A stretch of 64,000 nucleotides of DNA, taken from positions 24,539 to 88,538 of the forward strand of contig JBAWAP010000323.1 in assembly GCA_049589355.1 (NCBI GenBank), in the 5' to 3' direction. Below the pieces are notes generated by a model. It searched no databases. It was not told the origin of the DNA and was given only the letters and a program-made list of their open reading frames with translations. Positions 32,822 to 62,056 of the stretch are shown piece by piece. Position 1 is the stretch's first letter, and the number at the start of each line of letters is the position of its first letter. This DNA is from Anaerolineae bacterium (GTDB lineage Bacteria > Chloroflexota > Anaerolineae > VGOG01). Position numbers and translations under genes: made by a program.

Positions 32822-33766
32822 CTATCTCCACAGCCAGATCAGTCTGGCTCTCCTCTCGTCTAGCCGGTTCAGCCCTGCTTCGTGGGCCAGGCGCACCGCT
32901 TCCGCGTACTCTTCGGAGGTGATGCGGCGGTTCAGAGAAGGCAATTCGTGCCCTTTGTAGCAGGGGTGGTACTGGTCCATAAGGTTAAGGTAAGTGTTGG
33001 TGGAGACCTCTTGGGCCAGAAACTTTACGATCTCGGCCGTGCCGGCCAGCCCCTCAGGGAGTACCAGGTGGCGCACCAGCAGCCCTTGCAAAGCCACTCC
33101 CCGCTCGTCCAAAACCAAATCCCCTACCTGGCGGTGCATTTCTTTCATCGCCGCCTGGTTTATGGTCGGGTAGTTCTTTACCTTCGAGTAGCGCAGGGCT
33201 ACATCGGCGTCGGCGTACTTCATGTCGGGCATGTAGATGTCCACGATGCCGTCCAACAGGGCCAGGGTCTTCAGAGAATCGTAGCCGCCGGTGTTGTAGA
33301 CCAGGAGCAGGCGCAGGCCAGCCTCGGCGGCGATGAGCAGCCCGGCCAGAATCTGGGGCACCACGTGGGTGGGGGAGACGAAGTTGATGTTGTGGCAGCC
33401 CAGGTCTTGCAGGTGCAGCATCATGGCGGCCAGTGCCTCTGGCTCCACCTCTCGCCCCTGGCCCAGTTGGCTGATCTCGTAGTTCTGGCAGTACTGGCAG
33501 TTCAGGTTGCACCAGGCGAAGAAAATCGTCCCGGAGCCGCCCCGGCCGACCAGGGGCGCTTCCTCCCCGAAGTGGGGGTTGTAGCTAGAGACGAAGGCTC
33601 GCTCCCCCGTGCGGCAGACGGCCCCCTTGGCGCTCTCCCTGCGGTTCACGCCGCACTCCCTGGGGCAAACATCGCACGCCTCCAGTCGCTGATACGCCTC
33701 CTTGACCCGCTCCCTCAGCTCGCCGGAGCGGAGGAGTTTGAGGTATGCGGGTTCGAAATTCCCCAT
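32822..33766 (-). CDS. Radical SAM enzyme, PflX/YjjW-like activase family
   Basis: CNLNCQYCQN cluster motif. The ATG at 33766 overlaps the stop of the upstream gene (TGATG). Confidence 0.8.
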   Translation of the reverse strand: MGNFEPAYLKLLRSGELRERVKEAYQRLEACDVCPRECGVNRRESAKGAVCRTGERAFVSSYNPHFGEEAPLVGRGGSGTIFFAWCNLNCQYCQNYEISQLGQGREVEPEALAAMMLHLQDLGCHNINFVSPTHVVPQILAGLLIAAEAGLRLLLVYNTGGYDSLKTLALLDGIVDIYMPDMKYADADVALRYSKVKNYPTINQAAMKEMHRQVGDLVLDERGVALQGLLVRHLVLPEGLAGTAEIVKFLAQEVSTNTYLNLMDQYHPCYKGHELPSLNRRITSEEYAEAVRLAHEAGLNRLDERRARLIWLWR

Positions 33767-34401
33767 CACGTCAAGTTTCCCGCTTCTTTTCTAGCCGTCT
33801 GCTTTAAGTGCTCCCAGAGCGCCGTCACCTCTAGTCCCAGAGCTTTGGCGTGCCGCTCCACGTAGCTTTCATCGAAGCTGGCTTTCAAGGCTGGGTCTTC
33901 ACCCAGGTAGATGAAGACCAGGATGCCGTAGATATCCTCCTCGTGTCGGCGCGAGCGGCCTTCTACCCAGGCCATCAGCTTGCCTACGATGACGTCCTCT
34001 GGTCGTGCGAGCCAGGCCTCGAATTGTGCCCCGCTTGGATCCTCGACGGTGCGTTGAACTCGGCGAGTCAGGGCTTCACGATAGCGGGGATCCATGGTTA
34101 GCGGCACCAGGTCCACCTTCTGTCCTCGCTCAGTGTCAATCAGGTTGAACAGGATTCCGAGGCGAATGGAATCCCGCATCTGCTCAGGGTCGGCGTAGTA
34201 GCGCGGGGGCGGATAGCGCTTCGCTAAAGCCAGAATGTGAGCTTCCTGGAGGTCCACGACGATGTCAATGTCGTAGGTCACCCTGGTGCTGCCATAAGCT
34301 GCTGCGGCGAAACCGCCGATGATCACATACGGCGCACCGATCTCCTCCAGCGTCTGTAAGGCATCGAAGTAGAAGCTGGGAATAGCCTCTCGATCAGTCA
34401 T
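33766..34401 (-). CDS. Nucleotidyltransferase-fold protein (TA/defence-type)
   Basis: IIGGFAAAAYGSTRVTYDIDIVV (G-S...DxD) minimal nucleotidyltransferase signature. 211 aa. Confidence 0.65.
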   Translation of the reverse strand: MTDREAIPSFYFDALQTLEEIGAPYVIIGGFAAAAYGSTRVTYDIDIVVDLQEAHILALAKRYPPPRYYADPEQMRDSIRLGILFNLIDTERGQKVDLVPLTMDPRYREALTRRVQRTVEDPSGAQFEAWLARPEDVIVGKLMAWVEGRSRRHEEDIYGILVFIYLGEDPALKASFDESYVERHAKALGLEVTALWEHLKQTARKEAGNLT

Positions 34402-34609
34402 TGGAGCTCACTTCCTTCAATACCAGCAAATTGATCTCTCGTCGTGAGAGGTGTGGGTATTGGTGGCGCAATCGTCCTCGGACGATGTTCATGGCCAAGG
34501 CTTGAGCCTCCAGCATGGTGCGCACTCGCTTCGCCGCTGGCACTCGCGCCAGCAGTCGCAATTGATCAAGGTCCAAAGGTCCCCAAGGGCTCGCCCTTGT
34601 TTCTGTCAT
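34394..34609 (-). CDS. Small partner protein of the nucleotidyltransferase
   Basis: 71 aa from ATG 34609 (MTETRASPWG...). Overlaps the nucleotidyltransferase start by 8 nt. The longer ORF start lies in the relic copy in another frame. Confidence 0.5.
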   Translation of the reverse strand: MTETRASPWGPLDLDQLRLLARVPAAKRVRTMLEAQALAMNIVRGRLRHQYPHLSRREINLLVLKEVSSND

Positions 34610-34746
34610 CACTTGCTCCTGCGGTTTACGCCGCACTCCCTGGGGCAGACATCGCACGCCTCCAGCCGCTTATATGCCTCCTTGACCCGCTCCTTCAGCT
34701 CGCCGGAGCGGAGGAGTTTGAGATATGCGGGTTCGAAATGGGTCAT
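34609..34746 (-). pseudogene. Relic 5' fragment (45 codons) of the radical-SAM gene
   Basis: 34621-34746 matches 33641-33766 with about 7 substitutions over the ~117 nt up to the codon-3 divergence. Encodes MTHFEPAYLKLLRSGELKERVKEAYKRLEACDVCPRECGVNR and then stops. Its TGA overlaps the next ATG. Confidence 0.85.
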
Positions 34747-34814
34747 TTCACTTCTCGCTCGGAATTTCGCTGAGACCGGCCTAGCTGTGGGCTAGGACGG
34801 AAGTAGCGAACCTG

Positions 34815-35918
34815 TCAAGACATGATCTGCTTCTCACAGTACTCTTCAAAAGTCCCAAAGGGGACCGGGTCTTCTTGAAAGAAATGTCCTAGGAAGCTGA
34901 GTACTTTCTCGCGCACATCTGACTTTGGTTCAACCAATGTCAGGGTTGGACGCCATGGGTTGTTGGCAATAGCGCGTTTGAATAGCCACTTTGCCTCAAT
35001 GTCCGCATCTGGAAAAGAATACCCGATTACAGTGAGGGTATCCGCTCTCTCAAGGAAGTGCTCAGCACGATGCCACATACCGACCAGTTCTGGTATATCC
35101 ATCTGTTTTAGCAAAGTGGGGGGCACCAACACAGGGACCAGATGTGCATTTCCACATGACAGACACGACTGGTCAGATATTTGTCGGTATCTTCGGAAGT
35201 AGGCAAGGAACAACCGCTGGCAATGCGGACAGCGCGCCCAATTGAGTGATCCATGAAGCTTCAAGAGGTCAACATCTTCTTTCCTTCTTTGCTTGGAAAG
35301 CAGCCTTTCATACCCTGGACAGTTTTCCACCTCTGCAAACTCAATGTTGTAATCGCCCAGTATCCCATGATTGTTTATTGACATAGCTTGATCCAAGAAG
35401 AGATCATAGTTAAAGGTGATCATGCAATTGATCTCATCAACATGCATAATGTAATCAACAAGTTTGTCGTAACAATTTCGATTGTGGTCAAGAGTTCCAT
35501 CTTCGAGTCTTCTAAGGCAGTCAGAGTAGTATATGAGCGTTGTCTGCTCTAATGTCGTGAAGATGAATTCATGGAGCGCATCTTGCAAGCCTTCAAAAGG
35601 CAGCCAGGTTTCACGATGTCGCAGCCCCAAATCCACGAAGGAAAGCAGATCTTCGATGTTGACAGAAGGGATGTCGAATGGTCTCCAGATATGGTCAGGG
35701 CCAAGTGCGTCCTCAGTATACGTTTCCAATCTGCTGCCGTAGAGCCTGTCTATAAGTTGTGCTACCATTCTAAACTTTCGTGTTGACACGTCGTAGGCGT
35801 CAGGAAACGGAAGTAGCCAGAAGCCCTCGGACAAGAAGTCCTTTGTTAGTGGTGCCCCCACGTGTTTAGACGCACCAGCTCCAAAGACATATATGTTTAC
35901 CTTTGAGCCATTGATCAT
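34815..35918 (-). CDS. SIR2-family (SIR2_2-like) protein with Zn-ribbon
   Basis: N-terminal IYVFGAGAS NAD-binding motif, LKLHGSLNW catalytic-His motif, CPHC...CLSCG. Visibly lower GC than the flanks. Confidence 0.75.
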   Translation of the reverse strand: MINGSKVNIYVFGAGASKHVGAPLTKDFLSEGFWLLPFPDAYDVSTRKFRMVAQLIDRLYGSRLETYTEDALGPDHIWRPFDIPSVNIEDLLSFVDLGLRHRETWLPFEGLQDALHEFIFTTLEQTTLIYYSDCLRRLEDGTLDHNRNCYDKLVDYIMHVDEINCMITFNYDLFLDQAMSINNHGILGDYNIEFAEVENCPGYERLLSKQRRKEDVDLLKLHGSLNWARCPHCQRLFLAYFRRYRQISDQSCLSCGNAHLVPVLVPPTLLKQMDIPELVGMWHRAEHFLERADTLTVIGYSFPDADIEAKWLFKRAIANNPWRPTLTLVEPKSDVREKVLSFLGHFFQEDPVPFGTFEEYCEKQIMS

Positions 35919-35933: not shown

Positions 35934-36056
35934 TTAATGCCTGCGCTTCTTGCGCGGACGAGCCGTAAACTGGGACGGCTGGGTCGATCCTCCCGATTGC
36001 GCGATTCTTCGCGTCCGTTCCCTCTGGTAATCGCGAATCTCTTTCGCCAGTGGATG
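35934..36056 (-). repeat. Direct repeat R1: relic gene 3' end (...HPLAKEIRDYQRERTRR...RPRKKRRH*)
   Basis: About 89% identical (13/123 mismatches, hand count) to 36233-36355. No usable start codon. Its stop lies 15 nt before the SIR2 ATG. Confidence 0.8.
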
Positions 36057-36067
36057 GCGACTAGAAT

Positions 36068-36117
36068 CACTGAAGCCACTGACAAACACTGAGCACACTG
36101 ATTCAGTGTCTTCAGTG
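36068..36117. repeat. Heptamer-type hairpin (CACTGAA units / TTCAGTG)
   Basis: CACTGAAGCCACTGACAAACACTGAGCACACTGATTCAGTGTCTTCAGTG. Confidence 0.8.
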
Positions 36118-36120
36118 TTT

Positions 36121-36189
36121 TCACCAATTCACCGGCGCTCTCCTTATCCTCCAGCGCCGCTCCCAATACTGGACGCACTTGTTTTGCCT
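36121..36189 (-). pseudogene. Relic 3' end of a DEDD-exonuclease gene
   Basis: 84% identical (11/69 mismatches) to the 3' end of the intact exonuclease gene (37154-37222). In-frame translation RQNKCVQYWERRWRIRRAPVNW* compares with RQNKYVQYRDRQWRIKRVPVNW*. Confidence 0.8.
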
Positions 36190-36232: not shown

Positions 36233-36355
36233 TTAATGCCTCCGTCTTTTGCGCGGGCGAGCGGTAAACTGCGACGACTTGGCCGATCCTCCCGATTGCA
36301 CGATTCTTCGCGTCCGTTCCCTCTGGTAAGCGCGAATCTCTTTCGCCAGTGGATG
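36233..36355 (-). repeat. Direct repeat R2: second relic copy of the same gene 3' end
   Basis: Encodes ...ILSRHPLAKEIRAYQRERTRRIVQSGGSAKSSQFTARPRKRRRH*. An in-frame TGA lies upstream and there is no start codon. Confidence 0.8.
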
Positions 36356-36451
36356 ACGGGAGAGAATCCGCAGGTGGGTGATGGAAACGATGATTCTCTC
36401 AGTTCACCAGCCGCTTAATCTCCAGCTTCGGCGCGCCAAAGTCACGGTGGG

Positions 36452-36754
36452 TTATCGCAGTCTCTTTCCTTTCGTCTTGATCTCCCAGGCCAGGGGGTGC
36501 TCGTCGCAAAACTGCTCAGGACGGAAGCGGACTGGCTCAATCCGGGGGTCACTGCGCAGCAAGGCATCCACGATCTTCTGGTGGTCTTCCAGCCAGTCGC
36601 CGGTGAAATCCCCTGAGATCAGAGCGACATCAATGTCACTGTCAGGACGAACCGTTCCCTCAGCATGGGAGCCATACAGATAGGCCGATACCAGACGAAG
36701 GCCTGAGCCTTCGACCTCCTCCAAGAAGCGAGTAACTGCTTTTTCAACATCCAC
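36452..36754 (-). CDS. MNT-type minimal nucleotidyltransferase
   Basis: LYGSHAEG...DSDIDV signature. 100 aa. C-terminus is HPLAWEIKTKGKRLR. Confidence 0.75.
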   Translation of the reverse strand: MDVEKAVTRFLEEVEGSGLRLVSAYLYGSHAEGTVRPDSDIDVALISGDFTGDWLEDHQKIVDALLRSDPRIEPVRFRPEQFCDEHPLAWEIKTKGKRLR

Positions 36755-37019
36755 CTGTGATTACTCCATCCTGTTCTTCAGTCGTTGTGGTGGACATTTT
36801 AGGCGAGGACGATTCCTGTCGAGCCTGGGTTACTAGCCGTTCCAGAATGGCAGAGGCAGCCAGGATGGCATCCTCTGGCTCTTCCTCGCGGTTCAGCAGA
36901 TTGTCTATGATGAGCTCCATTTGATCGAATGAGGTGATGTCCACCAGAACGGCTTTTGCCTCGCCACCTTCGTAAACGATGGGAAAGCGGTCTCGGATCC
37001 AGAAAGTCGTTTCGGCCAT
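36744..37019 (-). CDS. Small partner protein (Phd/YefM-like antitoxin fold suspected)
   Basis: 91 aa. Overlaps the MNT start by 11 nt. PIVYEGGEAKAVLVDITSFDQMELIIDNL pattern. Confidence 0.5.
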   Translation of the reverse strand: MAETTFWIRDRFPIVYEGGEAKAVLVDITSFDQMELIIDNLLNREEEPEDAILAASAILERLVTQARQESSSPKMSTTTTEEQDGVITGGC

Positions 37020-37153: not shown

Positions 37154-37687
37154 TCACCAGTTCACCGGCACCCTCTTGATCCTCCACTGCCGGTCCCGAT
37201 ACTGGACGTACTTGTTCTGCCTGCCAAATTCGTAGAGCTGCCTGGTGATCTCCACGTCCTGTTGGCAGTAGTCGAAAAGCTCCTGCATCTTGCCCTGACG
37301 CCACCAGCGGATGGCCTGCATCCCGTCGGCTGACTTCGTTGTTCCTAGAGTGGCGCTGGCCAGAGCGTCGAGGCTCAGGCGGAAGCCCAGGGTTCGGTAG
37401 ACATCATCCAGTATGTCCACCGTGGGGAACTGGCGGAGGGGATAGTCGGTGTAGGCCCTCAGCACCTCGTAGTCGAAGCGTACCACGTTGAAGCCTACCA
37501 CGAGATCCGCCGCCTTCAACTCCTCGATGAGCTCGGCTACGTTGTCTTCGGTGTAGTGGTGATACTCGCCATCGGCGGTCGAATAGGTCACCGCCACCGA
37601 CAGGCTCAGGTGCCGAATGTTGTGCCGGCCTCCCACTTCCTGAAAGCTCCGCCGGGTCTCCAGGTCGAAGAAGACGATGGTCTTCAC
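37154..37687 (-). CDS. DEDDy-type 3'-5' exonuclease (RNase H-like fold)
   Basis: FFDLET (Exo I), GFNVVRFD (Exo II), YCQQD (Exo III). 177 aa. 4-nt overlap with the upstream SNF2 gene. Confidence 0.75.
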   Translation of the reverse strand: MKTIVFFDLETRRSFQEVGGRHNIRHLSLSVAVTYSTADGEYHHYTEDNVAELIEELKAADLVVGFNVVRFDYEVLRAYTDYPLRQFPTVDILDDVYRTLGFRLSLDALASATLGTTKSADGMQAIRWWRQGKMQELFDYCQQDVEITRQLYEFGRQNKYVQYRDRQWRIKRVPVNW

Positions 37688-39714
37688 GTTAATAGCTCCT
37701 CCACCAGCGCCCTCATTTCCTCCACTCGACTTCTGGCTGCGAGATTGATCTCGTCAATGTCGGTATCGAACATCGCGGCGAAGAGCTGTTGCTTGCCGTA
37801 GATCACCTCCAGCACCCGCTCCTCGATGGTGCTCCCCACCACCAGATTGATGACGTTGACGGGGTTCTTCTGACCGATGCGATGAGCCCGCCCGATACGC
37901 TGCTCCAGCTTGGCTGGGTTCCAGGGTAGGTCCACATTGATGACGAAGTCCGCAGCCTGCAGGTTCAGGCCCAGGCCGCCAGCATCGGTGGAGATGAATA
38001 TCCGGCAGTCGGGGTCCTCGGAGAAGCGGTCAATGATCCGCTCCCGCTGCGTGATGCTCAGGCCGCCGTGCATCCGCACCATGTCCACGGGCAAGCCCAC
38101 CAGAGCTTCCTCCACCAATCGCGTCATCCGCTCCCACTGGGTGAAGATGAGGACCTTGTGCCCGTTGTTCAAGGCCATGTCCTCGACGATCAGGGGAAGC
38201 TCGGCCAGTTTGCTGGAGGCTCGCACGCCGCCGTCGGTCACCAGTTGGGCCGCGTCGCAGATCTCCCTCATCTCGGTGATGAGCTCTAGCAGCCGCCCCA
38301 TCATCTCCGGCGTCCACTCCTCCCTGGGGACGTTGAACATGCTGCGCAGTTCGTTTTCCCTGGGGATGTAAAGCCGCTCCTGCGCCCGCTCCAGCTCCAG
38401 ATAGTAGTAGTTATCAATGCGCTCTGGCAGGTCATGAAGTACTTCGTCCTTGCGGCGGCGCAGGAAAATGGGGGCGATCTTGCGCTTGACCTTGTCCAGG
38501 CCCCGATAGCCGATGATGGCTCCCCATTCGTCGCGAATCACGTGTTCGACCATGAACTGCCAGGCGGGGCCCAGCAGCCGCCGGTCCAGAAACTGGACGA
38601 TGGAGTAAAGCTCGTCCAGCCTGTTCTCCAGGGGCGTGCCCGTCAGCACGTAAGCGTACTCTGAGGTGAGGTTCTTGATGAGCTGGGTGGTCTTGGCCCG
38701 CCAGTTTTTTATGCGCTGTGCTTCATCCAGGACGATCAGGCCCGGCTCCAGGCTGCGAATTAAGTCGAAGTCCCTGAGCACCAGCTCGTAGTTGAGGACG
38801 GTGAAGGTGCTGTCCTCGGCGTAGAGCTTTTCACGCTTCTTCTTTGCCCCCGTCATGACCGTCACGCTCTCGTCGGAGAAGCGTTCGATCTCCTTGGCCC
38901 ACTGGAGCTTCAGCGAGGCCGGGCAGATGATCAGCACTCTGGAGAGCTTGCCCTGCTGTTTGAGGAAAATCGAAGCGGCAATGGCCATTATGGTCTTGCC
39001 AAGGCCCATGTCGTCCCCCAACAGCGCGCGCCGGGTGAAGGTCAGGAAGAGGGTGCCCAGCATCTGGTAGGGATAGAGGGGGAGCTTGAGGACATCAATC
39101 TCCAGTTCTCCGGCCTTGACCTGCTCCATGAGCCGCCCCATCTCCGCTTCCCGTTCCGCCTGGCGCGCCAGGTCGCGGGCAGACTCCCAAACCTCGTCCC
39201 CGATCTGGGTTCGCCCACCCGCCTGGGCAACTTCTTCCTCGAACTCCCTCAGGGTCTCTTCGAGGGTGTGAGGATCGTCTTTCTTGAGCTTGCCCTCCTT
39301 GGTGAAGTAGTGGCTCACCGCCCGGCGGACGGGCTTCTCCAGCGAGGGATCGAAACTGGCTCTGATCACCGTCTGGTCGTCGTAGGCCAGGGTGAGGACG
39401 ACCTTGTGGGCCTTCTCCTCGGCCAGCTTTGCCCGCTGGCGCTTGAACTCCTGGGGGTGCTCCCGCTCCAGGTGGATGAGCACCGCCTCAATGTGCTTGC
39501 AGGTGCCCAGGCCGTTGGACTCGTAGTCGGGGCAGGAGCAGCGGTTCTCCAGCTCGAAGGGGTTGCGGATCTCCACGTCGTAGGTGTAACCGCTGGCGCT
39601 TTTGATCTTGTAAAGCGAAAGCAGCTCCCCTGGGTTGGTGTTGGTGATGCGGTAGCGGGGCAGTTCGCGTCGCGCCCGCTCTCGGCGGACCTCGATCTGA
39701 CATTGCTTGGACAT
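37684..39714 (-). CDS. SNF2-family helicase with N-terminal SWIM zinc finger
   Basis: CSCPDYESNGLGTCKHIEAV SWIM motif. DDMGLGKT, DEAQRIKN and QRIGRAHRIGQ helicase motifs. 676 aa. Confidence 0.9.
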   Translation of the reverse strand: MSKQCQIEVRRERARRELPRYRITNTNPGELLSLYKIKSASGYTYDVEIRNPFELENRCSCPDYESNGLGTCKHIEAVLIHLEREHPQEFKRQRAKLAEEKAHKVVLTLAYDDQTVIRASFDPSLEKPVRRAVSHYFTKEGKLKKDDPHTLEETLREFEEEVAQAGGRTQIGDEVWESARDLARQAEREAEMGRLMEQVKAGELEIDVLKLPLYPYQMLGTLFLTFTRRALLGDDMGLGKTIMAIAASIFLKQQGKLSRVLIICPASLKLQWAKEIERFSDESVTVMTGAKKKREKLYAEDSTFTVLNYELVLRDFDLIRSLEPGLIVLDEAQRIKNWRAKTTQLIKNLTSEYAYVLTGTPLENRLDELYSIVQFLDRRLLGPAWQFMVEHVIRDEWGAIIGYRGLDKVKRKIAPIFLRRRKDEVLHDLPERIDNYYYLELERAQERLYIPRENELRSMFNVPREEWTPEMMGRLLELITEMREICDAAQLVTDGGVRASSKLAELPLIVEDMALNNGHKVLIFTQWERMTRLVEEALVGLPVDMVRMHGGLSITQRERIIDRFSEDPDCRIFISTDAGGLGLNLQAADFVINVDLPWNPAKLEQRIGRAHRIGQKNPVNVINLVVGSTIEERVLEVIYGKQQLFAAMFDTDIDEINLAARSRVEEMRALVEELLT

Positions 39715-44737: not shown

Positions 44738-44738
44738 T

Positions 44739-49963: not shown

Positions 49964-50308
49964 GTGATGGGTAGGGCTGATGAATCGTTCAGAAAGCGGC
50001 TCGAAGAGGAGCGCAGAAGCCTGATAGCACAACTGGAGCGGTTGGGTGTGACGGAGCAGGAAAACCCTGGCTACAGCACCCACATAGCCGATGATGCTAC
50101 CGAGGTTTACGAAAACGCTAAGAACCACGCATTACGTCAGAATCTACAGCGTCTCCTGGGCCGAGTGAACGATGCCCTGACGAAATTTGATAAAGGCACC
50201 TATGGGCTGTGCGATGACTGCGGCGGAAGTATAGATCGGGCACGTTTGAAGGCTCTTCCTTACGCCACCCTGTGCATCCAGTGCCAGCAGCAGCGCGAGA
50301 GATCATAG
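49964..50308 (+). CDS. DksA/TraR-family C4 zinc-finger protein
   Basis: CDDCGGSIDRARLKALPYATLCIQC. 114 aa. Confidence 0.8.
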   Translation: MMGRADESFRKRLEEERRSLIAQLERLGVTEQENPGYSTHIADDATEVYENAKNHALRQNLQRLLGRVNDALTKFDKGTYGLCDDCGGSIDRARLKALPYATLCIQCQQQRERS

Positions 50309-50367
50309 AGAACCTGTACCGAGCCTGTCGAAGAGGGGGAGTTTACCTTTTGCTTCGTGAGAAGTGG

Positions 50368-52650: not shown

Positions 52651-52675
52651 CTTGTCTGCCGCTTTGTGATAGAAT
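52647..52675 (+). promoter_or_regulatory. sigma70-type promoter (TTGACT-17 nt-TAGAAT) of the vapBC-like module
   Basis: Overlaps the rluD stop. The spacer sequence is nearly identical to that of the promoter at 54520. Confidence 0.55.
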
Positions 52676-52705
52676 GGGCACATCCGCAAATGGGGGTGAG
52701 AAACG

Positions 52706-52987
52706 ATGAGCACAGTCGTGACTTTGGAGTTGCCAGATAGCGTATATCAGCCACTGGTGAAAATAGCGGAGAAAACGGGTAAGCCACTGGAGGAGTGGAT
52801 TCTGGCGCAGCTTTGGGCCCGCGTGCCACGGGTGGTGCTGTCTGAGCGGGAACGCGCTGAAGCTATGGCGCGGCTGATGGGGCACGCGGGCGCAGTTAAT
52901 TTAGGCCATCCGACAGGCGCGGACAACGAGAGCATTGACGTTGATCTGGCGCAGGAATACAGTAGCATGCACGAGGTGCAGTCGTGA
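52706..52987 (+). CDS. Antitoxin of a PIN-toxin module
   Basis: 93 aa. 4-nt overlap with the downstream PIN gene. Confidence 0.6.
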   Translation: MSTVVTLELPDSVYQPLVKIAEKTGKPLEEWILAQLWARVPRVVLSERERAEAMARLMGHAGAVNLGHPTGADNESIDVDLAQEYSSMHEVQS

Positions 52988-53382
52988 TGTTGCTGGATAC
53001 GTCGGGGCTGTTGTGTTTCCACCACGCTGCTGAACCACAACACGAGGAGGCGGTGACCTTCTTTCATGCCGCGCCCGCTCGTATTACTCACAGTTATGTG
53101 CTGGCAGAGTTTGTTGCTCTGGCCGTGGCGCGCCGTCTGCCTCGTCAAGCGGCATTGGCATTTGTGGCCGAGTTGCAAGACAACCCACTGGTCCAGGTTG
53201 TCTATGTAGACGAGCCTTTGCACCGAGAGGCTCTTGTGCTCCTGCAGCAACGCCTGGACAAGACGTGGACCCTGTGTGATGCGGTAAGCTTCTTGCTGAT
53301 GCAGCAGCGAGGCATCGTCGAAGCCCTAACTACTGACGCTCACTTCGAACAGGCGGGCTTCATACGGTTGCTACACCCTTGA
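52984..53382 (+). CDS. vapC: PIN-domain toxin (VapC-like)
   Basis: MLLDTSGLL start with the conserved Asp, plus later acidic residues (VLAEF, TTDAHF). 132 aa. Confidence 0.75.
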   Translation: MMLLDTSGLLCFHHAAEPQHEEAVTFFHAAPARITHSYVLAEFVALAVARRLPRQAALAFVAELQDNPLVQVVYVDEPLHREALVLLQQRLDKTWTLCDAVSFLLMQQRGIVEALTTDAHFEQAGFIRLLHP

Positions 53383-53495: not shown

Positions 53496-54509
53496 ATGCA
53501 CAAAGCATACTTCAGAAAAGCCTTGCTCCAAGAGAGGGCCAACGGCCAAGTACGCTGCCTGACCTGCGAGCGGCGGTGCGAGGTAGCGGAGGGCGGCCTG
53601 GGCTGGTGTCGCACCCGGCAAAACGAGGACGGCACTCTTTACACTCTCATCTACGGTAACGTTTCGTCCCTCTCAGCCAACCCCATCGAGAAGAAGCCCC
53701 TCTATCATTTCTACCCCGGCAGCGTGGCCCTGACGGCCGGCAGTTGGAGCTGCAACTTCAACTGCCCCTGGTGCCAGAACTGGAACATCTCCAAATTTCC
53801 GCCTCGCCCTGGACGCTACATGTCCCCAGAGGATTTCATCGCCGAGACAGTGCGCCGTGGCTGTCAGGGCACCTCCATCAGCTTCAACGAGCCCACCCTC
53901 TCCCTGGAATGGTCTCTCGACGTGTTCGAGCTTGCCCGCCAGCGGGGCCTCTACAACACCTACGTGACCAACGGCTACATGACCCCTGACGCGCTGGAGC
54001 TGCTGATCGAGGCGGGTCTGGATGCCATGAACGTGGACATCAAAGGGGACGCGGCGGCGGTCAAAAAGCACTGCGGGACCGACGTGGAGAAGGTCTGGCG
54101 GAACTGCCGGGAGGCCAAGAAGGCGGGGGTGCACATTGAGGTCACTACCCTGGTGATACCGACCGTCAACGACGACGAAGGGGTTTTGCGGGGCATCGCC
54201 AGGCGCATCCGCGAGGAGCTGGGCGCCGATACCCCCTGGCACTGCAGCGGCTACTACCCCGCCTACAAATTCACCGTCCCGCCCACGCCGCTGCACACCC
54301 TGGAGCGAGCCCACGACCTCGGCAGGGAGGAGGGGCTGGACTTTATCTATGTGGGCAACGTACTGGGGCATCCGTACGAGCACACCTATTGTCCGGGGTG
54401 CGGGGAGTTGCTGATCCGGCGGCGGGGATTGAGCGTGAGCCAGAATAGGTTGGAGGACAAGAAATGCCCCCAGTGCGGGCTGACCATTCCGGTGGTGATG
54501 GGCACTTGA
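53496..54509 (+). CDS. AmmeMemoRadiSam-system radical SAM enzyme
   Basis: CERRCEV...GWC N-terminal Cys motif, NPIEKKPLYHF, and CNFNCPWCQNW cluster. 337 aa. Confidence 0.8.
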   Translation: MHKAYFRKALLQERANGQVRCLTCERRCEVAEGGLGWCRTRQNEDGTLYTLIYGNVSSLSANPIEKKPLYHFYPGSVALTAGSWSCNFNCPWCQNWNISKFPPRPGRYMSPEDFIAETVRRGCQGTSISFNEPTLSLEWSLDVFELARQRGLYNTYVTNGYMTPDALELLIEAGLDAMNVDIKGDAAAVKKHCGTDVEKVWRNCREAKKAGVHIEVTTLVIPTVNDDEGVLRGIARRIREELGADTPWHCSGYYPAYKFTVPPTPLHTLERAHDLGREEGLDFIYVGNVLGHPYEHTYCPGCGELLIRRRGLSVSQNRLEDKKCPQCGLTIPVVMGT

Positions 54510-54519: not shown

Positions 54520-54548
54520 TTGACTTGTCTGCTGCCTTGTGCTAAAAT
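54520..54548 (+). promoter_or_regulatory. sigma70-type promoter (TTGACT-17 nt-TAAAAT)
   Basis: TTGACTTGTCTGCTGCCTTGTGCTAAAAT compares with TTGACTTGTCTGCCGCTTTGTGATAGAAT at 52647. Confidence 0.55.
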
Positions 54549-54592
54549 AGGTCAAGGGAAGGCTAGTCGGAGTGGGTAGAAAGGAGAGAGGT

Positions 54593-55772: not shown

Positions 55773-58700
55773 ATGATCGTCAACAATCATCAACTCTTCT
55801 CCCATACCTACCTCGCACGGCTGCAAGCCGATCCCACACACGACGAAGCGGCCGCGCCCATAGGCCAAGGGTTGCGTGACTGGATGCCCTTCCGCGATAC
55901 CTCCTCGCTCCGGTCGCTGATTGATTCCTGGGTCGGCCCGGTGCTCGACTTCCTGAAGTTCCACCACGTGCTGGCTGATGACTCTCCCCACATTTGCCTG
56001 CTCTACACACGCCGGGGCGATGAAACGCCTGTCGGCCTATGCTACGTCGTCCCACCTGGCCAAGATGGTTCGACAGGCTCACCACGTGGCTTGAATGACA
56101 CAACCAAAGGCCAACATCCGATGGCCCAAGCGGTCCTAGCTCTGCGCACTCGCGACCTGCGCTGGGGGATGCTGACTGACGGCGCGCGCTGGCGGCTGGT
56201 TGACGCCCAGGCCCTGCGCCGCTACGAGCATTACGTCGAGGTGGACCTGGACGAACTAGCCCGCAGCGACGACCCCACACCCTTGCGCCTCTTCTACGCT
56301 TTCTTCCACCGCAGCGCCTTCACGCCCGCTCATTCCCCCGCCAGCGGGGGGACCGAGGGGGGTGGTGAGAGCGGGCTGGATCGGCTGGTGGCGGCCTCGA
56401 TCCGAGCGACGAAGGCGGCTGAGGATCACCTCAAGGCGCGGGTCAGCCACAACGAGGGCATCATGGCCCAACTGTGCCTGGGGCTGGTGCGTGCCGATGG
56501 GCGAACTTGCTACACCGACACAGAACGGGACGCTATCTACCGCGACGCCACCTATCTCCTCTACCGCATACTTTTCATCCTCTATGCCGAAGCCCGGGGC
56601 CTCTTGCCGGTGAACAACCTGGCCTACCGCGCCGTGAGTCTGGCCGAGTTAGTCAAGACCGCCCACGACTACAAGTTGCGTGGGATGCCCGACCCTCAGG
56701 CGACGATGCTGTGGGAACGGCTGAAGCGGCTATGCAATGCCATCTACGAGAGCGACCCGGTGCTGGGCATTCCCGCTTATAACGGCGGCCTCTTCGACGA
56801 TGCTGACAAGCCTTACCTGCGTGACGGCCACATCGCCGATATGTATCTCACCGAGGCCCTCTTCGACCTGGCCTACATGCCCGACAAGGTGCCAGGCACT
56901 TCCGAAGTGCCTGGCACCTCCTACCGCCCCATTGACTACCGCGACCTCTCCGTGCGCCACATGGGCAGCCTCTATGAGGGGATGATCGAGTACAAGCTTC
57001 ACATCGCCGAGGAGACGCTGTGGGCGCGGCGGGACGGCAAGGGCAACGTGCGCTTTCTGCGCAGCGGCCAGGACGGGGCACCCCGCAAGACCGATGTGGA
57101 GATCGAGCCGGGCCAGGTCTACTTCTCCCAGAGCCCCGGCGAGCGACGCGCCACCGGCACCTACTACACCCCGGAGTACATCGTGGACTACATCGTGCGC
57201 CAGACGGTGGTGCGGGGGCTGGAGGAACGACGCGCTCCACTGGAGGAGAAGCTGGCCGGCTGGCTGGAGGAGATCGCCGTCACGACCGACCCCGCCGAGC
57301 GGGCTCGGATGCAGCGCACTGCTGACGAGGAACTGCTGCGCTTCGTCAAGGAGCAGGTGCTCACTTTCCGTGTCTGCGACATAGGAATGGGCAGTGGTCA
57401 CTTCCTGGTCAACTCGGCCCATCAGATCGCCAACTCTATCATGGAAACCCTGCACCTGACCCCGTGGGGGCCTGTCCTGAGCGGAGTCGAAGGAAACGAC
57501 GCGGTTGACGCCGACCCGGCAACCTGGCGGCGGCAGGTAGTGGAGCGCTGTCTGTACGGGGTGGACCTGAGCTTGATGGCCGTGGAGCTAGCCAAGCTGA
57601 GCCTGTGGCTGGCCAGCGTGGCCGAGGGCAAACCCCTGTCTTTCTTGGATCACCACCTGCGTCAAGGCAACAGCCTCATCGGTGCCCGGCTGGAGGACCT
57701 GGCCGAGGTCCTGGCGGGCGTGGCTTCCACTCGTCCGTCGCGCCAGGAGCGCAAAGCACGGGAAGCAGGGCAACTTTCAATGCTAGATGACCCGGCTTTC
57801 AGCCAACACGTAACGGCAGCGACTGATCTGTTGGCTCAGATCTCGGCCCGGGTGGTTGAGAGAGTGGAGGACATCAAGGCCCAGGAGGCCGACTATGAAC
57901 AGGTGCGCGCTGAGTTGGAGCCCTACCGGCGGCTGGCCGATCTTTGGACTGCGCGTCACTTCGGTGTGGATGTGGATGAGCAGCAGTTGAGAGCCATTTC
58001 CAGGTACCTGGTCAACGGCGCTGTCAGTCCAGTGCCAGAATACGAGCGAATTCTAACACGGACTCAAGAACTAGCCCACGACCGAAGCTTCTTCCACTGG
58101 GAACTCGAATTTCCCACGGTCTTCCTCGATCAGTCTGATCAGCTACTGGAAGACAGAGCAGGGTTTGATGCAGTGGTTGGAAATCCACCTTATTCGTTAG
58201 ATCTGACTCAACAGGAGAAACACTACTTCAAGAAAACGTATCCCAGTCTGTTCTTCAAGATAAACCTCTTTGCCGCATTTGTTGAGAGAGGACTAGAACT
58301 GTCGAGAAGCCCCACCGGATGCTTGTCGTTGATCATCCCTAATCTGTTACTTGGCAACAGATCGTTGAGAGACTTGCGTGTGAAACTGGCGACTGACAAT
58401 ACCATTCGCGCCCTGCACAACCTTGGCGATGGTGTTTTTGAGGAAGCCGAAGTGCCCACGCTAGTATTTGTTGTGCAAAAGCAGCTCCCTCTGCCAGACC
58501 ACGAAGTTGTTGTTGGTTCTGGGGCATTGACTGGTGGAAACCTGGATGCTCAGCGCATTCGTCAGAGCTCGATTCTAGTTACACAAGAGCAGGTGTTTAA
58601 TCTGTCGTCAACGCGTGAGATAGACATCATCACCCGCCTCATGGCGAGATGCGACTTGTTCCAAGATCATCTTGACATTCATCAGGGCGTGATTACCGGT

Positions 58701-59888
58701 GATGACTCTCGTTTCCTTGCTGATGCGCCTAGAGGATCACATTGGAAACCAACTCTCACTGGCAAAGACATCGACCGTTACATAACGGACTACCCCACTC
58801 TGTACGTTGACTACCAGCCTGCTTTGCTTGCGGCGCCAAGGGAAATTGCTATCTTCGATGTTCCCGAAAAGCTATTGATGCGACGCACTGGAGACAGACC
58901 ACTAGCGTCTTACGACGACCGACAGACCTTTAATCTTCATACTTTGTACTCCATTCGTAAAGAGAATAGCTCACTCCTCAGCTTGAAATACTGTCTTGCA
59001 CTCATAAATTCCTCTCTGATGGCTTGGATTTACAAGACACTCTTGCCTACTGAAATTGGTCGCACTTTCGCGGAAATCAAGATAGTACACATTCGGCAAC
59101 TTCCCATCAGCCGCATTGCCTTCACCACGCCTCTTAATGAGCGCACGGTACTGGTACAGGAAAGTGTTGCGCTTTACATCGCAGGTAAGCAAGAAGCGTT
59201 GCTTGCGTCTGTGTCAGAGTGGCTCACAACCCAACCAGGGCGAGCCGACGTTGTCCACGACCTGCTGGCTCACCTGGCGCAGCAGATGATTGACCTCAAC
59301 AAAGAGCGCCAGCGATTGGAGCGTGAGGCCAACCTGTTCCGCTTCGTGGATCGCGATACGTCCTGCGTGAAGCTGGATGAGGCCCTGGGCGGGCCGTTGG
59401 GTGCCGGCGAAATGGTAGGCAATTTATCTGCCGTCCACCACAACATTGAGGGCTTGCGCCTCACACAAGAGGATAATGGCCGCTGGCTCCTGGAGGTGCG
59501 GGCCAAGCTACGCGACCCGGAGAGCGACTGGCGGGAGCATCAGCGCGATAAGGAAGGCAACTTCATCCGTCAGTGGCTGCCGGCCTACCGCCTGCCGCTG
59601 GACAAGGCGACCGGCCGCTTCTATCACTACGCCTTTGCCCACTTGGGCGGCTTCGCCGGGGCCGGCAAGTTCCCCGGCGGCTCCACCCGCACCACGCTGG
59701 AGAAGCTCAAGGCGACGAAGGTGCCTAAGCTCGTGTCGGTGGACTTGGCCCCACTGACCGTGCTAGACGCCGAACTGACCGAGGTGCGCCGCAAGATCCG
59801 CCTCACCGATGACTTGATTGACCAGATCGTGTACAGGCTCTATGGGCTAACCGAGGAGGAGATTGCGATTGTGGAGGGGCGGGGGTGA
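55773..59888 (+). CDS. Large type IIG / PglX-like N6-adenine DNA methyltransferase
   Basis: GTYYTPEYIVDYIV, DIGMGSGHFL (motif I), VVGNPPYS (motif IV), N-terminal LTDGARWRLV. The C-terminal YRLYGLTEEEIAIVEG is typical of Eco57I/TaqI-like enzymes. 1371 aa. Confidence 0.85.
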   Translation: MIVNNHQLFSHTYLARLQADPTHDEAAAPIGQGLRDWMPFRDTSSLRSLIDSWVGPVLDFLKFHHVLADDSPHICLLYTRRGDETPVGLCYVVPPGQDGSTGSPRGLNDTTKGQHPMAQAVLALRTRDLRWGMLTDGARWRLVDAQALRRYEHYVEVDLDELARSDDPTPLRLFYAFFHRSAFTPAHSPASGGTEGGGESGLDRLVAASIRATKAAEDHLKARVSHNEGIMAQLCLGLVRADGRTCYTDTERDAIYRDATYLLYRILFILYAEARGLLPVNNLAYRAVSLAELVKTAHDYKLRGMPDPQATMLWERLKRLCNAIYESDPVLGIPAYNGGLFDDADKPYLRDGHIADMYLTEALFDLAYMPDKVPGTSEVPGTSYRPIDYRDLSVRHMGSLYEGMIEYKLHIAEETLWARRDGKGNVRFLRSGQDGAPRKTDVEIEPGQVYFSQSPGERRATGTYYTPEYIVDYIVRQTVVRGLEERRAPLEEKLAGWLEEIAVTTDPAERARMQRTADEELLRFVKEQVLTFRVCDIGMGSGHFLVNSAHQIANSIMETLHLTPWGPVLSGVEGNDAVDADPATWRRQVVERCLYGVDLSLMAVELAKLSLWLASVAEGKPLSFLDHHLRQGNSLIGARLEDLAEVLAGVASTRPSRQERKAREAGQLSMLDDPAFSQHVTAATDLLAQISARVVERVEDIKAQEADYEQVRAELEPYRRLADLWTARHFGVDVDEQQLRAISRYLVNGAVSPVPEYERILTRTQELAHDRSFFHWELEFPTVFLDQSDQLLEDRAGFDAVVGNPPYSLDLTQQEKHYFKKTYPSLFFKINLFAAFVERGLELSRSPTGCLSLIIPNLLLGNRSLRDLRVKLATDNTIRALHNLGDGVFEEAEVPTLVFVVQKQLPLPDHEVVVGSGALTGGNLDAQRIRQSSILVTQEQVFNLSSTREIDIITRLMARCDLFQDHLDIHQGVITGDDSRFLADAPRGSHWKPTLTGKDIDRYITDYPTLYVDYQPALLAAPREIAIFDVPEKLLMRRTGDRPLASYDDRQTFNLHTLYSIRKENSSLLSLKYCLALINSSLMAWIYKTLLPTEIGRTFAEIKIVHIRQLPISRIAFTTPLNERTVLVQESVALYIAGKQEALLASVSEWLTTQPGRADVVHDLLAHLAQQMIDLNKERQRLEREANLFRFVDRDTSCVKLDEALGGPLGAGEMVGNLSAVHHNIEGLRLTQEDNGRWLLEVRAKLRDPESDWREHQRDKEGNFIRQWLPAYRLPLDKATGRFYHYAFAHLGGFAGAGKFPGGSTRTTLEKLKATKVPKLVSVDLAPLTVLDAELTEVRRKIRLTDDLIDQIVYRLYGLTEEEIAIVEGRG

Positions 59889-60092
59889 AACATTCCCTAT
59901 CTTCGAAGACCCACTGATTTGAATGGTGACCATGACAAAGTCTTCCGTGGTGCCCATATATTGTGGTATCCTCGGCCATGAATACAACATATAGTATGCA
60001 CGAGAAATTCTGTCATCCTTGGACTCCAAATCAGTGGTAGTCTGATCTTGTAAGTCTATTAACGCGTAAGTGTTCGTCCCAAGGAGAAAGCT

Positions 60093-61931
60093 ATGAATCT
60101 ACCCAGTGAAGGGGATCTTTTCACCCCGAAATCGGCAATCCTGGATAGCCTATTACCTGACATTTGCCGGCACAAGATTGCCCTGCCTGAATTCCAACGT
60201 CCATGGGTTTGGGAACCAGAGATGGTACGCGACCTACTGATCTCTGTTGCCTACCGTTACCCAGCAGGTAGTTTGCTGACCATGCCTGTCAGTGGAGACA
60301 GCTTCGCTCTGCGCCCTTTTGAAGGGTGTAGTGACAAGCTGCGAGACAAGCCGAACCTAGTCATCCTGGACGGTCAACAACGACTGACTAGCCTCTACCA
60401 GTCTCTTTATTGGCGAGATGGAGTTCACTATAAACAGCACAAGTACTACTTTTATCTGGATGTAGCAATATTGATGGCCGACCGGGATGGCATAGACGTG
60501 GGCGATCCGTATTTTGACCAGGCACTGTTCTACGTGCGAGAAGAGAAGAATGGCCGCCGGGTGCGTTACGACGGCCTGCGGCCGATGTACGAGTTGACGA
60601 CTGCTGAGGACGAACTTCGAGCCGGCGCGTTGCCCCTCGGCTGCATCTTTGATAATGATGCACTGACCAAGTGGAAAGAGGAGTACCTCTATCGCCAAAC
60701 GACCGATTTGGCGCGTTACCGGGAACTCAATCGGGAATGGGACCGACTTGTACATGCATGGATAACCCGTATCCGCACGTACCGCTTTCCGGTTGTGGAA
60801 CTGGACGATTCCATGCCCCTGGGAGCGATATGTCACATTTTCGAGAAACTCAACAGTACGGGTGTTCCTTTGGATGTCTTTGACCTTTGCAACGCTATCC
60901 TTTGGGCACAGGGCTTCCATCTCAACCATCGCTGGGCTGCCACAGAAAAGGAACTGAAGGAAGCCCTGCCCATGCAACCGCTTTCCGGCACTTATTTCTT
61001 GCAGGGTTTGTCTCTGCTTGACTCTATGGACCGCAAAAGAGCCAATCCAGACCGGGAGATTGCGGTCACTTGCCGCAAGCAAGACCTCATGGCTATGAAG
61101 CGCGAAACGGTTGAAAAATGGTGGGATCCCCTTGTAAAAGGCTACGGGGAAGCTGCCAAATTCATGGCCGACCAGGGTATCATAGCCACACGCATTCTGC
61201 CTTACTCCACGTTGATTACCCCGCTCTCGGCTGTTTTCGCCGATCTGATACGGCACAAAGGCACTGCCCATATAGGCGCTACGTGGCCACAAATTGAGCG
61301 CTGGTACTGGTGCAGCGTATTCAGCCAGCGGTATAGCAGCCAGATTGAGACTGCCTCAGCCCGGGATTTTGAGCATGTCCTCAACTGGATTGACGGCGGG
61401 GAACCTCCCGATGTTGTGCGCACCTTTGGCTTTCGCTCCGACGCCCTGCAAGAGATCACCTCTATCCGCAACGCCATCTACAAAGGAGTGCTCTGCTTGC
61501 TGACGCGCGGGGGGGCCAAAGACTTTGGCGGCGGAGGTAAACTCTCAACGCACCTCTTCTACGCGACCAACCAGGATCACCACCACATTTTCCCCACCAA
61601 TGCACTCAAGCGACTGGGTATTCAAGACCGACGTGTTGACACTATCGTCAACAAAACACTGATCAATTACGCAGTCAACCGCAGCATTGGTGGCAGACTA
61701 CCCTCCGAGTACGTGAGAGATTGGCGGGGTAGGTTAGGCGCTGCCCTTTTCGACAGCATTTTGGAGACGCATAGGGTTGATTCCGCTTCCTTGAGCAATG
61801 ATAACTGGGAACGTTACTTGCTCGATCGGCGGGAGAAGCTTCGGCAACTGATTGCCTCAGCCTGTGGTGGCAATATCCAACCCTTCTCTGACATTGCTGA
61901 CCTTGAGGTTGAGGATAACGAAGAAGTGTGA
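60093..61931 (+). CDS. DUF262/DUF1524 (GmrSD-like) type IV restriction-type protein
   Basis: DGQQRLTSL (DUF262) at the N-terminus. HHIFP...VNKTLINYAVNRSIG (His-Me/DUF1524-like) at the C-terminus. 612 aa, with lower GC than the flanks. Confidence 0.8.
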   Translation: MNLPSEGDLFTPKSAILDSLLPDICRHKIALPEFQRPWVWEPEMVRDLLISVAYRYPAGSLLTMPVSGDSFALRPFEGCSDKLRDKPNLVILDGQQRLTSLYQSLYWRDGVHYKQHKYYFYLDVAILMADRDGIDVGDPYFDQALFYVREEKNGRRVRYDGLRPMYELTTAEDELRAGALPLGCIFDNDALTKWKEEYLYRQTTDLARYRELNREWDRLVHAWITRIRTYRFPVVELDDSMPLGAICHIFEKLNSTGVPLDVFDLCNAILWAQGFHLNHRWAATEKELKEALPMQPLSGTYFLQGLSLLDSMDRKRANPDREIAVTCRKQDLMAMKRETVEKWWDPLVKGYGEAAKFMADQGIIATRILPYSTLITPLSAVFADLIRHKGTAHIGATWPQIERWYWCSVFSQRYSSQIETASARDFEHVLNWIDGGEPPDVVRTFGFRSDALQEITSIRNAIYKGVLCLLTRGGAKDFGGGGKLSTHLFYATNQDHHHIFPTNALKRLGIQDRRVDTIVNKTLINYAVNRSIGGRLPSEYVRDWRGRLGAALFDSILETHRVDSASLSNDNWERYLLDRREKLRQLIASACGGNIQPFSDIADLEVEDNEEV

Positions 61932-61945
61932 AATGGCAGGAAGAA

Positions 61946-62056
61946 GACCTGACTGACCAGATCGTGTACAGGCTCTATGGGCTGACGGAGGAGGAGATCG
62001 CGATTGTGGAGGGGCGGGCGCCAGGGTCATACCCAGAAGAGGAACGATCAGAATGA
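61946..62056 (+). pseudogene. Relic 3' end of the methyltransferase gene
   Basis: 61955-62018 matches 59820-59883 (3 mismatches in 64 nt). In-frame DQIVYRLYGLTEEEIAIVEGRAPGSYPEEERSE*, whose TGA overlaps ATG 62053 of the next gene. Confidence 0.85.

Follow-up and report, generated by a model that had tools for sequence, protein, structure and literature searches.

In a chromosomal stretch of an Anaerolineae bacterium, small accessory genes of toxin-antitoxin (TA) or defence type stand between two copies of the end of a neighbouring host gene, and comparison with relatives indicates that the two copies differ in origin: the far copy, here called the relic, represents the old terminus of the recipient, and the terminus that completes the working gene came with the accessory genes (the cargo). 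The stretch, hereafter the window, comprises 64,000 nt (GTDB Chloroflexota; Anaerolineae; VGOG01; assembly GCA_049589355.1, contig JBAWAP010000323.1, positions 24,539-88,538 of the forward strand). It is proposed, with somewhat more confidence than doubt, that these structures record the acquisition of genes through homologous anchoring at two recombination hotspots and are not products of a self-mobile element. The architecture itself is not undescribed, as it fits insertion with long target duplication, first seen for restriction-modification (RM) systems. Below, L-numbers designate fetched loci of relatives (genomes and metagenome contigs) and P-numbers designate orthologues.

Direct repeats and their genomic setting

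An all-against-all comparison of the window with itself returned, with one tandem-repeat gene set aside, four significant non-tandem direct repeats:

33638-33759 and 34618-34739: repeat R1, head of a radical-SAM gene, 122 nt, 115/122 identical (94.3%), E = 6e-48
36121-36189 and 37154-37222: repeat R2, tail of an exonuclease gene, 69 nt, 84.1% identical, E = 9e-14
59808-59883 and 61943-62018: repeat R3, tail of a DNA methyltransferase gene, 76 nt, 92.1% identical, E = 1e-24
35934-36059 and 36233-36358: repeat X/X', 126 nt, 89.7% identical, E = 5e-42; brackets the exonuclease-tail relic

All four adjoin small accessory genes, each bracketing a small cassette, and in three of the four the duplicated sequence is the terminus of a host gene. 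The remainder of the window is core chromosome (rpoC, pyruvate kinase, secDF, thiI, aspS, ileS, lspA, rluD), with the radical-SAM protein 91-92% identical in the closest species representatives. An earlier reading made from the letters alone (the sequence-only reading) had put R1 at 94% and R2 at 84% over 69 nt, the first of which stands and the second of which is exact; its 95% over 64 nt for R3 is really 92% over 76 nt, and X/X' was missing from its list. It had also held that no recombinase is encoded in the stretch, and indeed no integrase, transposase or recombinase domain was found by Pfam among about 60 open reading frames (ORFs) of the window, which comprise most ORFs of at least 100 aa and the cassette ORFs.

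The repeats are real. The sequence is derived from a metagenome, and the Logan contigs of SRR28022779 break exactly at the R1 repeats, which might suggest that strain variants were concatenated during assembly. Such an artefact is highly improbable, because R2 and R3 are recovered at 100% identity inside single independent Logan contigs of the same run and the R1 layout is spanned, in diverged sequence, by single contigs from four other samples and other assemblers (L084, L087, L088, L091). Moreover, the relic-to-cargo junctions hold no identity of k-mer length that could mislead an assembler. An exact-protein look-up of the exonuclease gave no match, and the cargo look-ups matched the same sample only, so no within-population polymorphism is readable from them.

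Origin of the working termini and of the relics

The features on the radical-SAM side are as follows:

32822-33769, minus strand: host gene encoding a radical-SAM enzyme (Pfam Radical_SAM)
33766-34609, minus strand: R1 cargo, a 71-aa protein (34394-34609) and a 211-aa AbiEii-like nucleotidyltransferase (33766-34401; Pfam AbiEii)
34609-34746, minus strand: radical-SAM head relic, an intact 45-codon ORF (MTHFEPAY...GVNRRSK, then stop), with the repeat proper at 34618-34739

The gene-proximal R1 copy (33638-33759) lies directly after the cargo stop and has the cargo-associated start (M)MGNF. The relic has its own ATG and the native upstream region, and its stop overlaps the ATG of the cargo (TGATG); its initial MTHF is the native start in P0004, P0009 and P0010, and together with its upstream sequence it matches the native head and upstream sequence of L085 at 95.4% over 130 nt. 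The relic agrees with the working head at 115/122 positions and with L085 at 116/122, and of the seven differences between the window's copies five are synonymous and two change an amino acid. The head region is conserved at 105-118/122 among all genus members, too conserved for a tree of relics versus working copies, and comparison of the radical-SAM gene with L001, L085 and L084 by sliding identity gave a weak excess over the first ~180 nt that is not decisive for a donor tract. The cargo is a TA-like pair, tightly packed, with its final stop overlapping the radical-SAM start. The L084 orthologue of the 71-aa protein has a precomputed Pfam Rv0078B match, and 80 pairs homologous to this cargo are present in metagenomes.

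At the second hotspot, the 1371-aa methyltransferase with its working tail, GmrSD, the methyltransferase-tail relic and the 566-aa Schlafen/AlbA_2 gene follow one another:

55773-59888, plus strand: host gene, Eco57I/TaqI_C-type DNA methyltransferase of 1371 aa, DrmMI/PglX-like (Pfam; PADLOC DrmMI 2e-88; NCBIfam PglX)
59884-61942, plus strand: R3 cargo, ~200 nt of its own upstream sequence, a GmrSD type IV restriction gene (60093-61931; Pfam GmrSD_N) and 11 nt
61943-62056, plus strand: methyltransferase-tail relic, EDLTDQIVYRLYGLTEEEIAIVEGRAPGSYPEEERSE and stop; the native stop and the following gene's ATG overlap (ATGA)
62053-63753, plus strand: native downstream neighbour of 566 aa (Pfam Schlafen AlbA_2, HATPase_c_4)

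The gene-proximal R3 copy is nt 59808-59883 of the methyltransferase gene, whose new tail ends in IVEGRG. The relic keeps the ending EGRA and agrees with the empty-site orthologue L167 at four of the six sites at which the copies differ, so that the two copies match each other at 70/76 and the relic matches L167 at 71/76; four of the six differences are synonymous and two change an amino acid. The locus is BREX/DISARM-like, with a faint PglZ match and DUF4007 downstream in relatives.

The sequence-only reading had proposed a common layout of working terminus, cargo and diverged relic in native context, and this holds: the R1 relic keeps an ATG and an upstream region of its own, a hairpin follows the R2 relic (see below), and the R3 relic retains the ATGA overlap. 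It had also argued that the gene-proximal terminus goes with the cargo, which is borne out by relatives. The cargo-to-radical-SAM junction, in which the stop lies over the start and the protein begins M-E/G-x-F, is common to L084, L087, L088 and L090 and is also present in L089, where the relic is absent; we refer to this state as donor-like. Similarly, L174 has the same layout as the window at the methyltransferase, with the same GmrSD gene (94% aa) and a relic of only 30 nt, and L175 has a GmrSD gene 80% identical beside the orthologous methyltransferase without a relic. The relics are thus the native copies, because they keep the native start and upstream region or the ATGA context and match L085 or L167, and the working termini are imported, because the cargo-terminus junction recurs even in the relic-less L089 and L175. 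By the same comparisons, the two copies have diverged as far as orthologues of different species.

A perfect palindrome of 31-33 nt (GGTGCCAGGCACTTCCGAAGTGCCTGGCACC) occurs at window positions 56887-56919 and at L167 4747-4779; in the window it is in frame in the methyltransferase ORF, encoding VPGTS-E-VPGTS. The same palindrome (97%) forms an intergenic hairpin directly after the GmrSD stop in L175 (4268-4300). It could be a mobile element of small palindromic type or one resembling a terminator.

Empty, donor-like, occupied and stacked states

In L008 and L009 only 24-88 nt separate the exonuclease gene from the radical-SAM gene downstream of it, with no other gene between, which makes R1 and R2 the two edges of one 3.4-kb variable interval. 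The three loci that the sequence-only reading had taken as independent are therefore two hotspots. In other relatives the interval holds MNT+HEPN genes (L004), an RM methyltransferase (L001), a 200-aa gene (L085), ParDE and the R1 cargo (L084, L088, L091) or four TA pairs including the R1 cargo (L089). The cassettes are co-oriented with the operon, and start/stop overlaps with their neighbours are frequent. The empty/occupied polymorphism that had been asked for is thus present. L085 and L001 have a single radical-SAM head, and in L167-L171 only 60 nt separate the methyltransferase gene from the 566-aa gene, GmrSD being absent; in L172 that position is occupied by 6 kb of other genes. Empty, donor-like and occupied states all exist.

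Mobility of the R1 cassette, likewise proposed before, is supported by synonymous-site divergence (dS). Between the window and L084/L088, the two cargo genes have a dS of 0.42-0.47, whereas that of the exonuclease, radical-SAM body and downstream gene is 0.80-0.99; since the cargo value is about half that of the host genes, the cassette appears to have moved between lineages. The cargo falls into two clades (window, L087 and L090; L084, L088, L089 and L091) and is absent in L001 and L085, which are intermediate by radical-SAM identity. This distribution could reflect movement between lineages or repeated loss, and the dS values favour movement, so that we regard the R1 cargo as horizontally transferred on the evidence of sequence divergence. 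No viral or phage carrier was found for the nucleotidyltransferase, and for GmrSD only a 59% homologue.

The layout was also found at other genes and in other Anaerolineae genomes (L008, L005, L087, L172, L174). In L008, 59 nt of the radical-SAM tail are duplicated (96.6%) around a MazEF-like pair with 0-4 spare nt, and in L005 79 nt of a permease head are duplicated around a small methyltransferase gene. Three radical-SAM heads stand in tandem (99-281, 427-567 and 1404 onward) in L087, which is 95% identical to the window; they are two relic ORFs with differing native-type starts (MTHF, MNSF) and the working gene. The L087 insert includes an older relic and ~145 nt of foreign upstream sequence, no fetched locus matches the 145-nt spacer that parts the relics, and a K/Q haplotype of the mid-head is exchanged between relic and working copy when compared with the window. 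An additional 35-nt head fragment precedes the ParDE cassette in L084, L088 and L091, and two decayed methyltransferase-tail relics lie between cassettes in L172. The boundaries of the methyltransferase-tail relics vary by event (about -117, about -90, -81 and -30 nt), which argues against one fixed recombination site; the same radical-SAM relic end, at ~nt 141, was left by two different inserts (L087 relic 2 and the L084-type relic).

The radical-SAM relic ORF is intact at 45-51 codons in five genomes (window, L084, L087, L088, L091). A 15-nt in-frame deletion marks the relic in the window and L087 lineage, with the stop/start overlap with the cargo kept. This suggests that the relic is translated as a leader, or is held uniform by recombination; translation of the cargo would presumably be coupled to that of the relic ORF.

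Between the window and L001/L085, the radical-SAM body (32822-33622) has a dS of 0.30-0.41, less than half the 0.80-0.90 found in the adjacent FecR-like gene (31615-32820). The radical-SAM gene itself may have been exchanged by recombination at the hotspot.

The exonuclease side of the variable interval

Read along the minus strand, the interval begins with the SNF2 helicase gene and the exonuclease gene with its working tail, followed by the 91-aa ORF and MNT gene, X', the exonuclease-tail relic, its hairpin and X; then come the SIR2-like gene, the native upstream region with the radical-SAM head relic, the 71-aa/AbiEii-like pair and the radical-SAM gene.

37154-37687, minus strand: host gene encoding an RNase H-like 3'-5' exonuclease (Pfam RNase_H_2, DNA_pol_A_exo1)
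36452-37019, minus strand: R2 cargo, a 91-aa ORF (36744-37019) overlapping an MNT-type nucleotidyltransferase gene (36452-36754)
36233-36358, minus strand: X', 126-nt repeat copy at the distal end of the R2 insert
36121-36189, minus strand: exonuclease-tail relic, RQNKCVQYWERRWRIRRAPVNW and stop, 84% identical to the working tail
36060-36120, minus strand: hairpin right after the relic stop (-30 kcal/mol, z = -3.8, 0/200 shuffles as stable)
35934-36059, minus strand: X, the second 126-nt tail-fragment copy, ending 15 nt before the SIR2 start
34815-35918, minus strand: SIR2-like gene (Pfam SIR2_2; PADLOC SIR2 models)

The exonuclease gene lies downstream of the SNF2 helicase gene (37684-39714), and its last 69 nt (37154-37222) are the gene-proximal R2 copy. 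The MNT nucleotidyltransferase is matched by Pfam NTP_transf_2 and Polbeta, NCBIfam MntA and PADLOC PDC-S09, and the 91-aa ORF has no family match; at the same hotspot in L089 an MNT gene 86% identical to that of R2 is partnered by a HEPN gene. What the sequence-only reading had called a nucleotidyltransferase pair at R1 is a 71-aa protein with an AbiEii-like nucleotidyltransferase. Ten codons differ between the exonuclease relic and the working tail, four synonymously and six nonsynonymously, with W and C in the relic at conserved R and Y positions, which suggests that the relic is decaying; by these differences R2 looks older or decayed relative to R1 and R3. The hairpin is the native downstream context of the exonuclease gene.

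X/X' encodes the C-terminal tail (...HPLAKEIRAYQRERTRRIVQSGGS...RRH, then stop; HPLAKEIR.YQRERTRRI.QSGGS) of an ORF whose body is missing in both copies, and no homologue of it was found in any fetched locus. The AGGAG of the SIR2-like gene stands directly 3' of X. This gene is the central resident of the interval, with native-context relics of both flanking genes on its two sides, and is absent at this interval in L004, L008, L009, L084 and L089. Between 33500 and 40000 a pattern scan returned no strong (at least 10/12) promoter-like site on the minus strand, and downstream of 38987 it returned none of any strength.

The hairpin has 41 nt (83-88%) in common with L099 1825-1865, L100 4694-4732 and L102 1267-1305. 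These matches lie upstream of homologues of the 71-aa cargo protein on unrelated metagenome contigs, and the hairpin may be a dispersed palindromic element.

Proposed route of acquisition and its alternatives

According to our proposal, a related Anaerolineae donor would already have carried the cargo beside its own copy of the conserved gene. Donor DNA would enter the recipient and recombine homologously inside the conserved gene, and its far, non-homologous end would then be joined illegitimately within the recipient's own terminus of that gene, homology being absent at the far end because the neighbour there differs between genomes. The product would be the gene body, the imported terminus, the cargo, the truncated native terminus (the relic) and the native neighbourhood. 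The resulting relic-cargo-terminus unit would be homologous to the target gene on both sides and could enter relatives that have the gene by a double crossover, which would explain shared boundaries, conserved relics and arrays, the last by repetition of this step. From these products we infer a pathway of RecA-type crossover plus illegitimate join, the physical form of the incoming DNA and the function of the relic as a second homology arm. For analogous displacement arrays, a route of homology-facilitated illegitimate recombination was put forward (PMC5361080). The occurrence of the same layout with unrelated targets and cargo (L008, L005) counts in favour of the proposal.

Several points weigh against it. 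The homologous side of the junctions is clear, but microhomology at the other is weak or ambiguous (0-5 nt). The cargo edges are unusually tight, with 0-4 spare nt in L008 and a cargo stop that abuts the host ribosome-binding site in L005, and random illegitimate joins do not predict such edges. The relic end shared at ~nt 141 hints at a preferred breakpoint or a reused frame. A join inside the recipient terminus should be a minority outcome, yet it is repeatedly seen, and entry of DNA by natural competence or another route, putative for these organisms, would be needed.

A related and more far-reaching possibility, which we put forward tentatively, is that relic-flanked cassettes are distinct recombinase-free mobile units that carry both homology arms for one gene, enter relatives whatever the variable neighbour is, are subject to cassette-level selection and build integron-like arrays. 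If true, such selection would explain the intact relic ORFs, the shared relic boundaries and the tight ORF-to-ORF packing, and the units would form operon-embedded, integrase-free arrays of TA and defence genes; excision as a circle may or may not belong to their cycle. A less likely alternative to linear import, close to what the sequence-only reading had in mind, takes circles as the mobile form: small circular cassettes consisting of cargo and a 60-140 nt terminus mimic would integrate by a single Campbell-type homologous crossover in the mimic, and excision between the repeats would regenerate the circle. A single crossover always gives the observed layout, so that the commonness of relics is explained better than by linear import, and boundaries would be a property of the cassette, in keeping with a relic end that is identical in L084, L088 and L091, with the shared ~nt 141 and with the discrete, tight cargo ends in differing contexts. 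The K/Q haplotype swap between the window and L087 is expected from excision and reintegration at other crossover points, and precise loss in the intermediate lineages L001 and L085 would be easy. However, no circle, plasmid or viral carrier was found, and all putative circle junctions are also chromosomal, hence there is no diagnostic sequence. In the relic-less L089 and L175 the cargo-terminus junction pre-exists as ordinary synteny; the second homology block X' in the R2 insert is unnecessary for a terminus-mimic circle; and the L087 insert, with ~145 nt of foreign upstream region and an older relic, resembles a chunk of donor chromosome and not a minimal cassette. Repeats of 69-134 nt at 84-94% identity are, in addition, a poor substrate for RecA-dependent crossover. 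The linear route would give the same product as the circle and accounts more directly for the relic-less donor-like loci.

Insertion with long target duplication in the literal sense is unlikely here on the sequence comparisons. It would place the cargo in a staggered or resected double-strand break, with repair synthesis duplicating 70-140 nt and the copies diverging in place. For RM systems the architecture was interpreted in this way, and breakage of DNA by the cargo was suggested to cause it (PMC2853133); GmrSD is a nuclease, and, as in that work, the repeats extend over start or stop codons. The copies are, however, no closer to each other than to the orthologues of other species, and the working radical-SAM head departs from the relic in its start codon and first three codons, an arrangement that the relic-less L089 has too. 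No DNA-cleaving activity is assigned to the TA cargo of R1, R2 and L008, and the R1 structure is common to lineages with a host dS of ~0.9 and a cargo dS of ~0.45. Since the copies have diverged like orthologues and the gene-proximal copy travels with the cargo, 'duplication of the target' is probably not literal; and since the architecture is not specific to restriction enzymes (TA, SIR2 and GmrSD cargo), cargo-made DNA breaks are less likely as its general cause. Slightly less credit still is given to integrase-less remnants or satellites of site-specific integrative elements (CIME-like), for which a tyrosine or serine recombinase would act in trans and the repeats would be attL and attR. 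There are classical integrative elements that insert at a gene end and restore it (phage 21 and e14 at icd, ICESt1 at fda), and integrase-less derivatives are represented by the CIMEs at fda and the Dehalococcoides ssrA islands. As in these, the carried copy of a gene end keeps the gene intact here, a partial copy remains on the far side, and the tandem arrays of att-like relics in L087 and L172 resemble accretion; the recombinase could be encoded outside the 64 kb of the genome that is visible. Unlike them, with their dedicated recombinase and att core, the present loci comprise five unrelated targets (radical-SAM head and tail, exonuclease tail, methyltransferase tail, permease head) with no common junction motif, relic boundaries vary at the methyltransferase tail, and the mismatches are spread along the repeats so that no perfect core is left. 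No recombinase was found in the scanned window ORFs or beside the cassettes in the inspected relatives, the only exception being a DDE transposase in L172 that is unrelated. The unrelated targets, variable boundaries and missing junction motif make a site-specific recombinase acting in trans unlikely.

Some further candidates were rejected. A diversity-generating retroelement does not fit the mismatches, which are of all types (T/A, T/C, A/G, C/G), and no reverse transcriptase stands beside any repeat. Tandem duplication followed by insertion is possible on paper for R2, where the X/X' and tail copies are 299 nt apart and in register, and fails for R1, where the start region of the working head differs from the relic and is common to the relic-less L089. 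An integron is considered below.

Comparison with described systems

Insertion with long target duplication was first seen for type IIS RM systems in Helicobacter pylori (Nobusato, Uchiyama, Ohashi & Kobayashi 2000, Gene 259:99; PMC2853133) and was later extended to RM types I-IV, lone mcrA and orphan methyltransferases in several phyla (Furuta, Abe & Kobayashi 2010, NAR 38:2428, PMC2853133). Its repeats range from >30 bp to ~420 bp, are often 93-99% identical and often lie over the start or stop of the target, which stays intact; the inserts are without mobility genes, occur also in operon-like clusters, and the mechanism is not settled (PMC2853133). Some published cases have the pattern of R1 and R3; in one of them the left and right copies agree at 368/393 and the left copy and the subject at 370/393 (PMC2853133). 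The present loci share the lack of a mobility gene in the insert (Pfam, cargo and the ~60 window ORFs), flanking repeats of >30 bp (122, 69 and 76 nt and the extra 126 nt; E = 1e-13 to 6e-48), single-copy empty sites in relatives (L008, L009; L085, L001; L167-L171) and, at R3, a GmrSD type IV restriction enzyme, comparable to the lone type IV mcrA. They differ in that the R1 and R2 cargo are TA-like pairs and SIR2 also occurs, whereas that survey covered RM systems only; in that the relics stack into arrays; and in the Anaerolineae host, absent from the reports of that study. The copies here are also not each other's closest relatives, contrary to what the name implies, which we treat as the interpretation behind the name and not as a strict criterion.

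A close functional parallel is C-terminal displacement with orphan arrays in Rhs, contact-dependent inhibition (CDI) and type VI secretion system (T6SS) loci, where the conserved part of the gene serves as a homologous anchor (Jackson 2009; Poole 2011; Kirchberger et al. 2017; PMC5361080). There too, incoming DNA brings a terminus with accessory genes, the old terminus is pushed downstream and arrays build without an integrase (PMC5361080). In those systems the new terminus is a toxin tip with its cognate immunity gene, whereas here it is an orthologous, equivalent terminus and the cargo is unrelated to the host gene; moreover, 5' heads as well as 3' tails are affected here. The statement of the sequence-only reading that no described family has such properties was thus mistaken.

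Like integron arrays, the cassettes are small, mostly promoter-less, co-oriented and often of TA type, lie between fixed points with the newest beside the fixed point, and use host expression signals. Unlike in integrons, the separators are relics of host genes, no intI was found in the scanned ORFs, and no attC-like palindromic element common to the junctions was seen by eye in the window, L004, L084 and L089; the integron was rejected on the last two grounds.

In the literature we found no description of this architecture with TA cargo or in Chloroflexota. New here are the cargo of TA-like, SIR2 and GmrSD type, the operon embedding, the direct evidence for import of the gene-proximal copy, the stacking of relics into arrays and the occurrence in Anaerolineae. 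By which route defence and TA genes come to lie at integrase-free hotspots among core genes is a current question of defence-island biology, and the mechanism of insertion with long target duplication has been open since 2000. Empty, donor-like, occupied and stacked states can be sampled from metagenomes, which makes linear import versus Campbell circles testable. Should relics serve as portable homology arms, small cassettes could spread within a lineage in a simple manner and without a recombinase.

Other features of the window

Two copies of a 32-nt promoter sequence of sigma-70 type (TTGACT, 17 nt, TAGAAT/TAAAAT), 27/32 identical and with the spacer conserved too, lie at 52647-52678 and 54520-54551. 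Between them are a VapB-VapC pair (52706-53382) and a second radical-SAM gene (53496-54509), and the copies may be another, short instance of the flanking-repeat architecture or a duplicated promoter.

Tandem structures of other kinds are also present in the window. Two paralogues of lspA (signal peptidase II) stand in tandem at 50272-50859 and 50913-51497. An LVIVD-repeat beta-propeller gene (27626-29545) consists of 126-nt tandem units in at least 11 copies with 62-78% identity, and the isoleucyl-tRNA synthetase ORF contains at 48686-48744 a 15-nt tandem repeat (CGAATCCACGAATCC-like) of at least three units.

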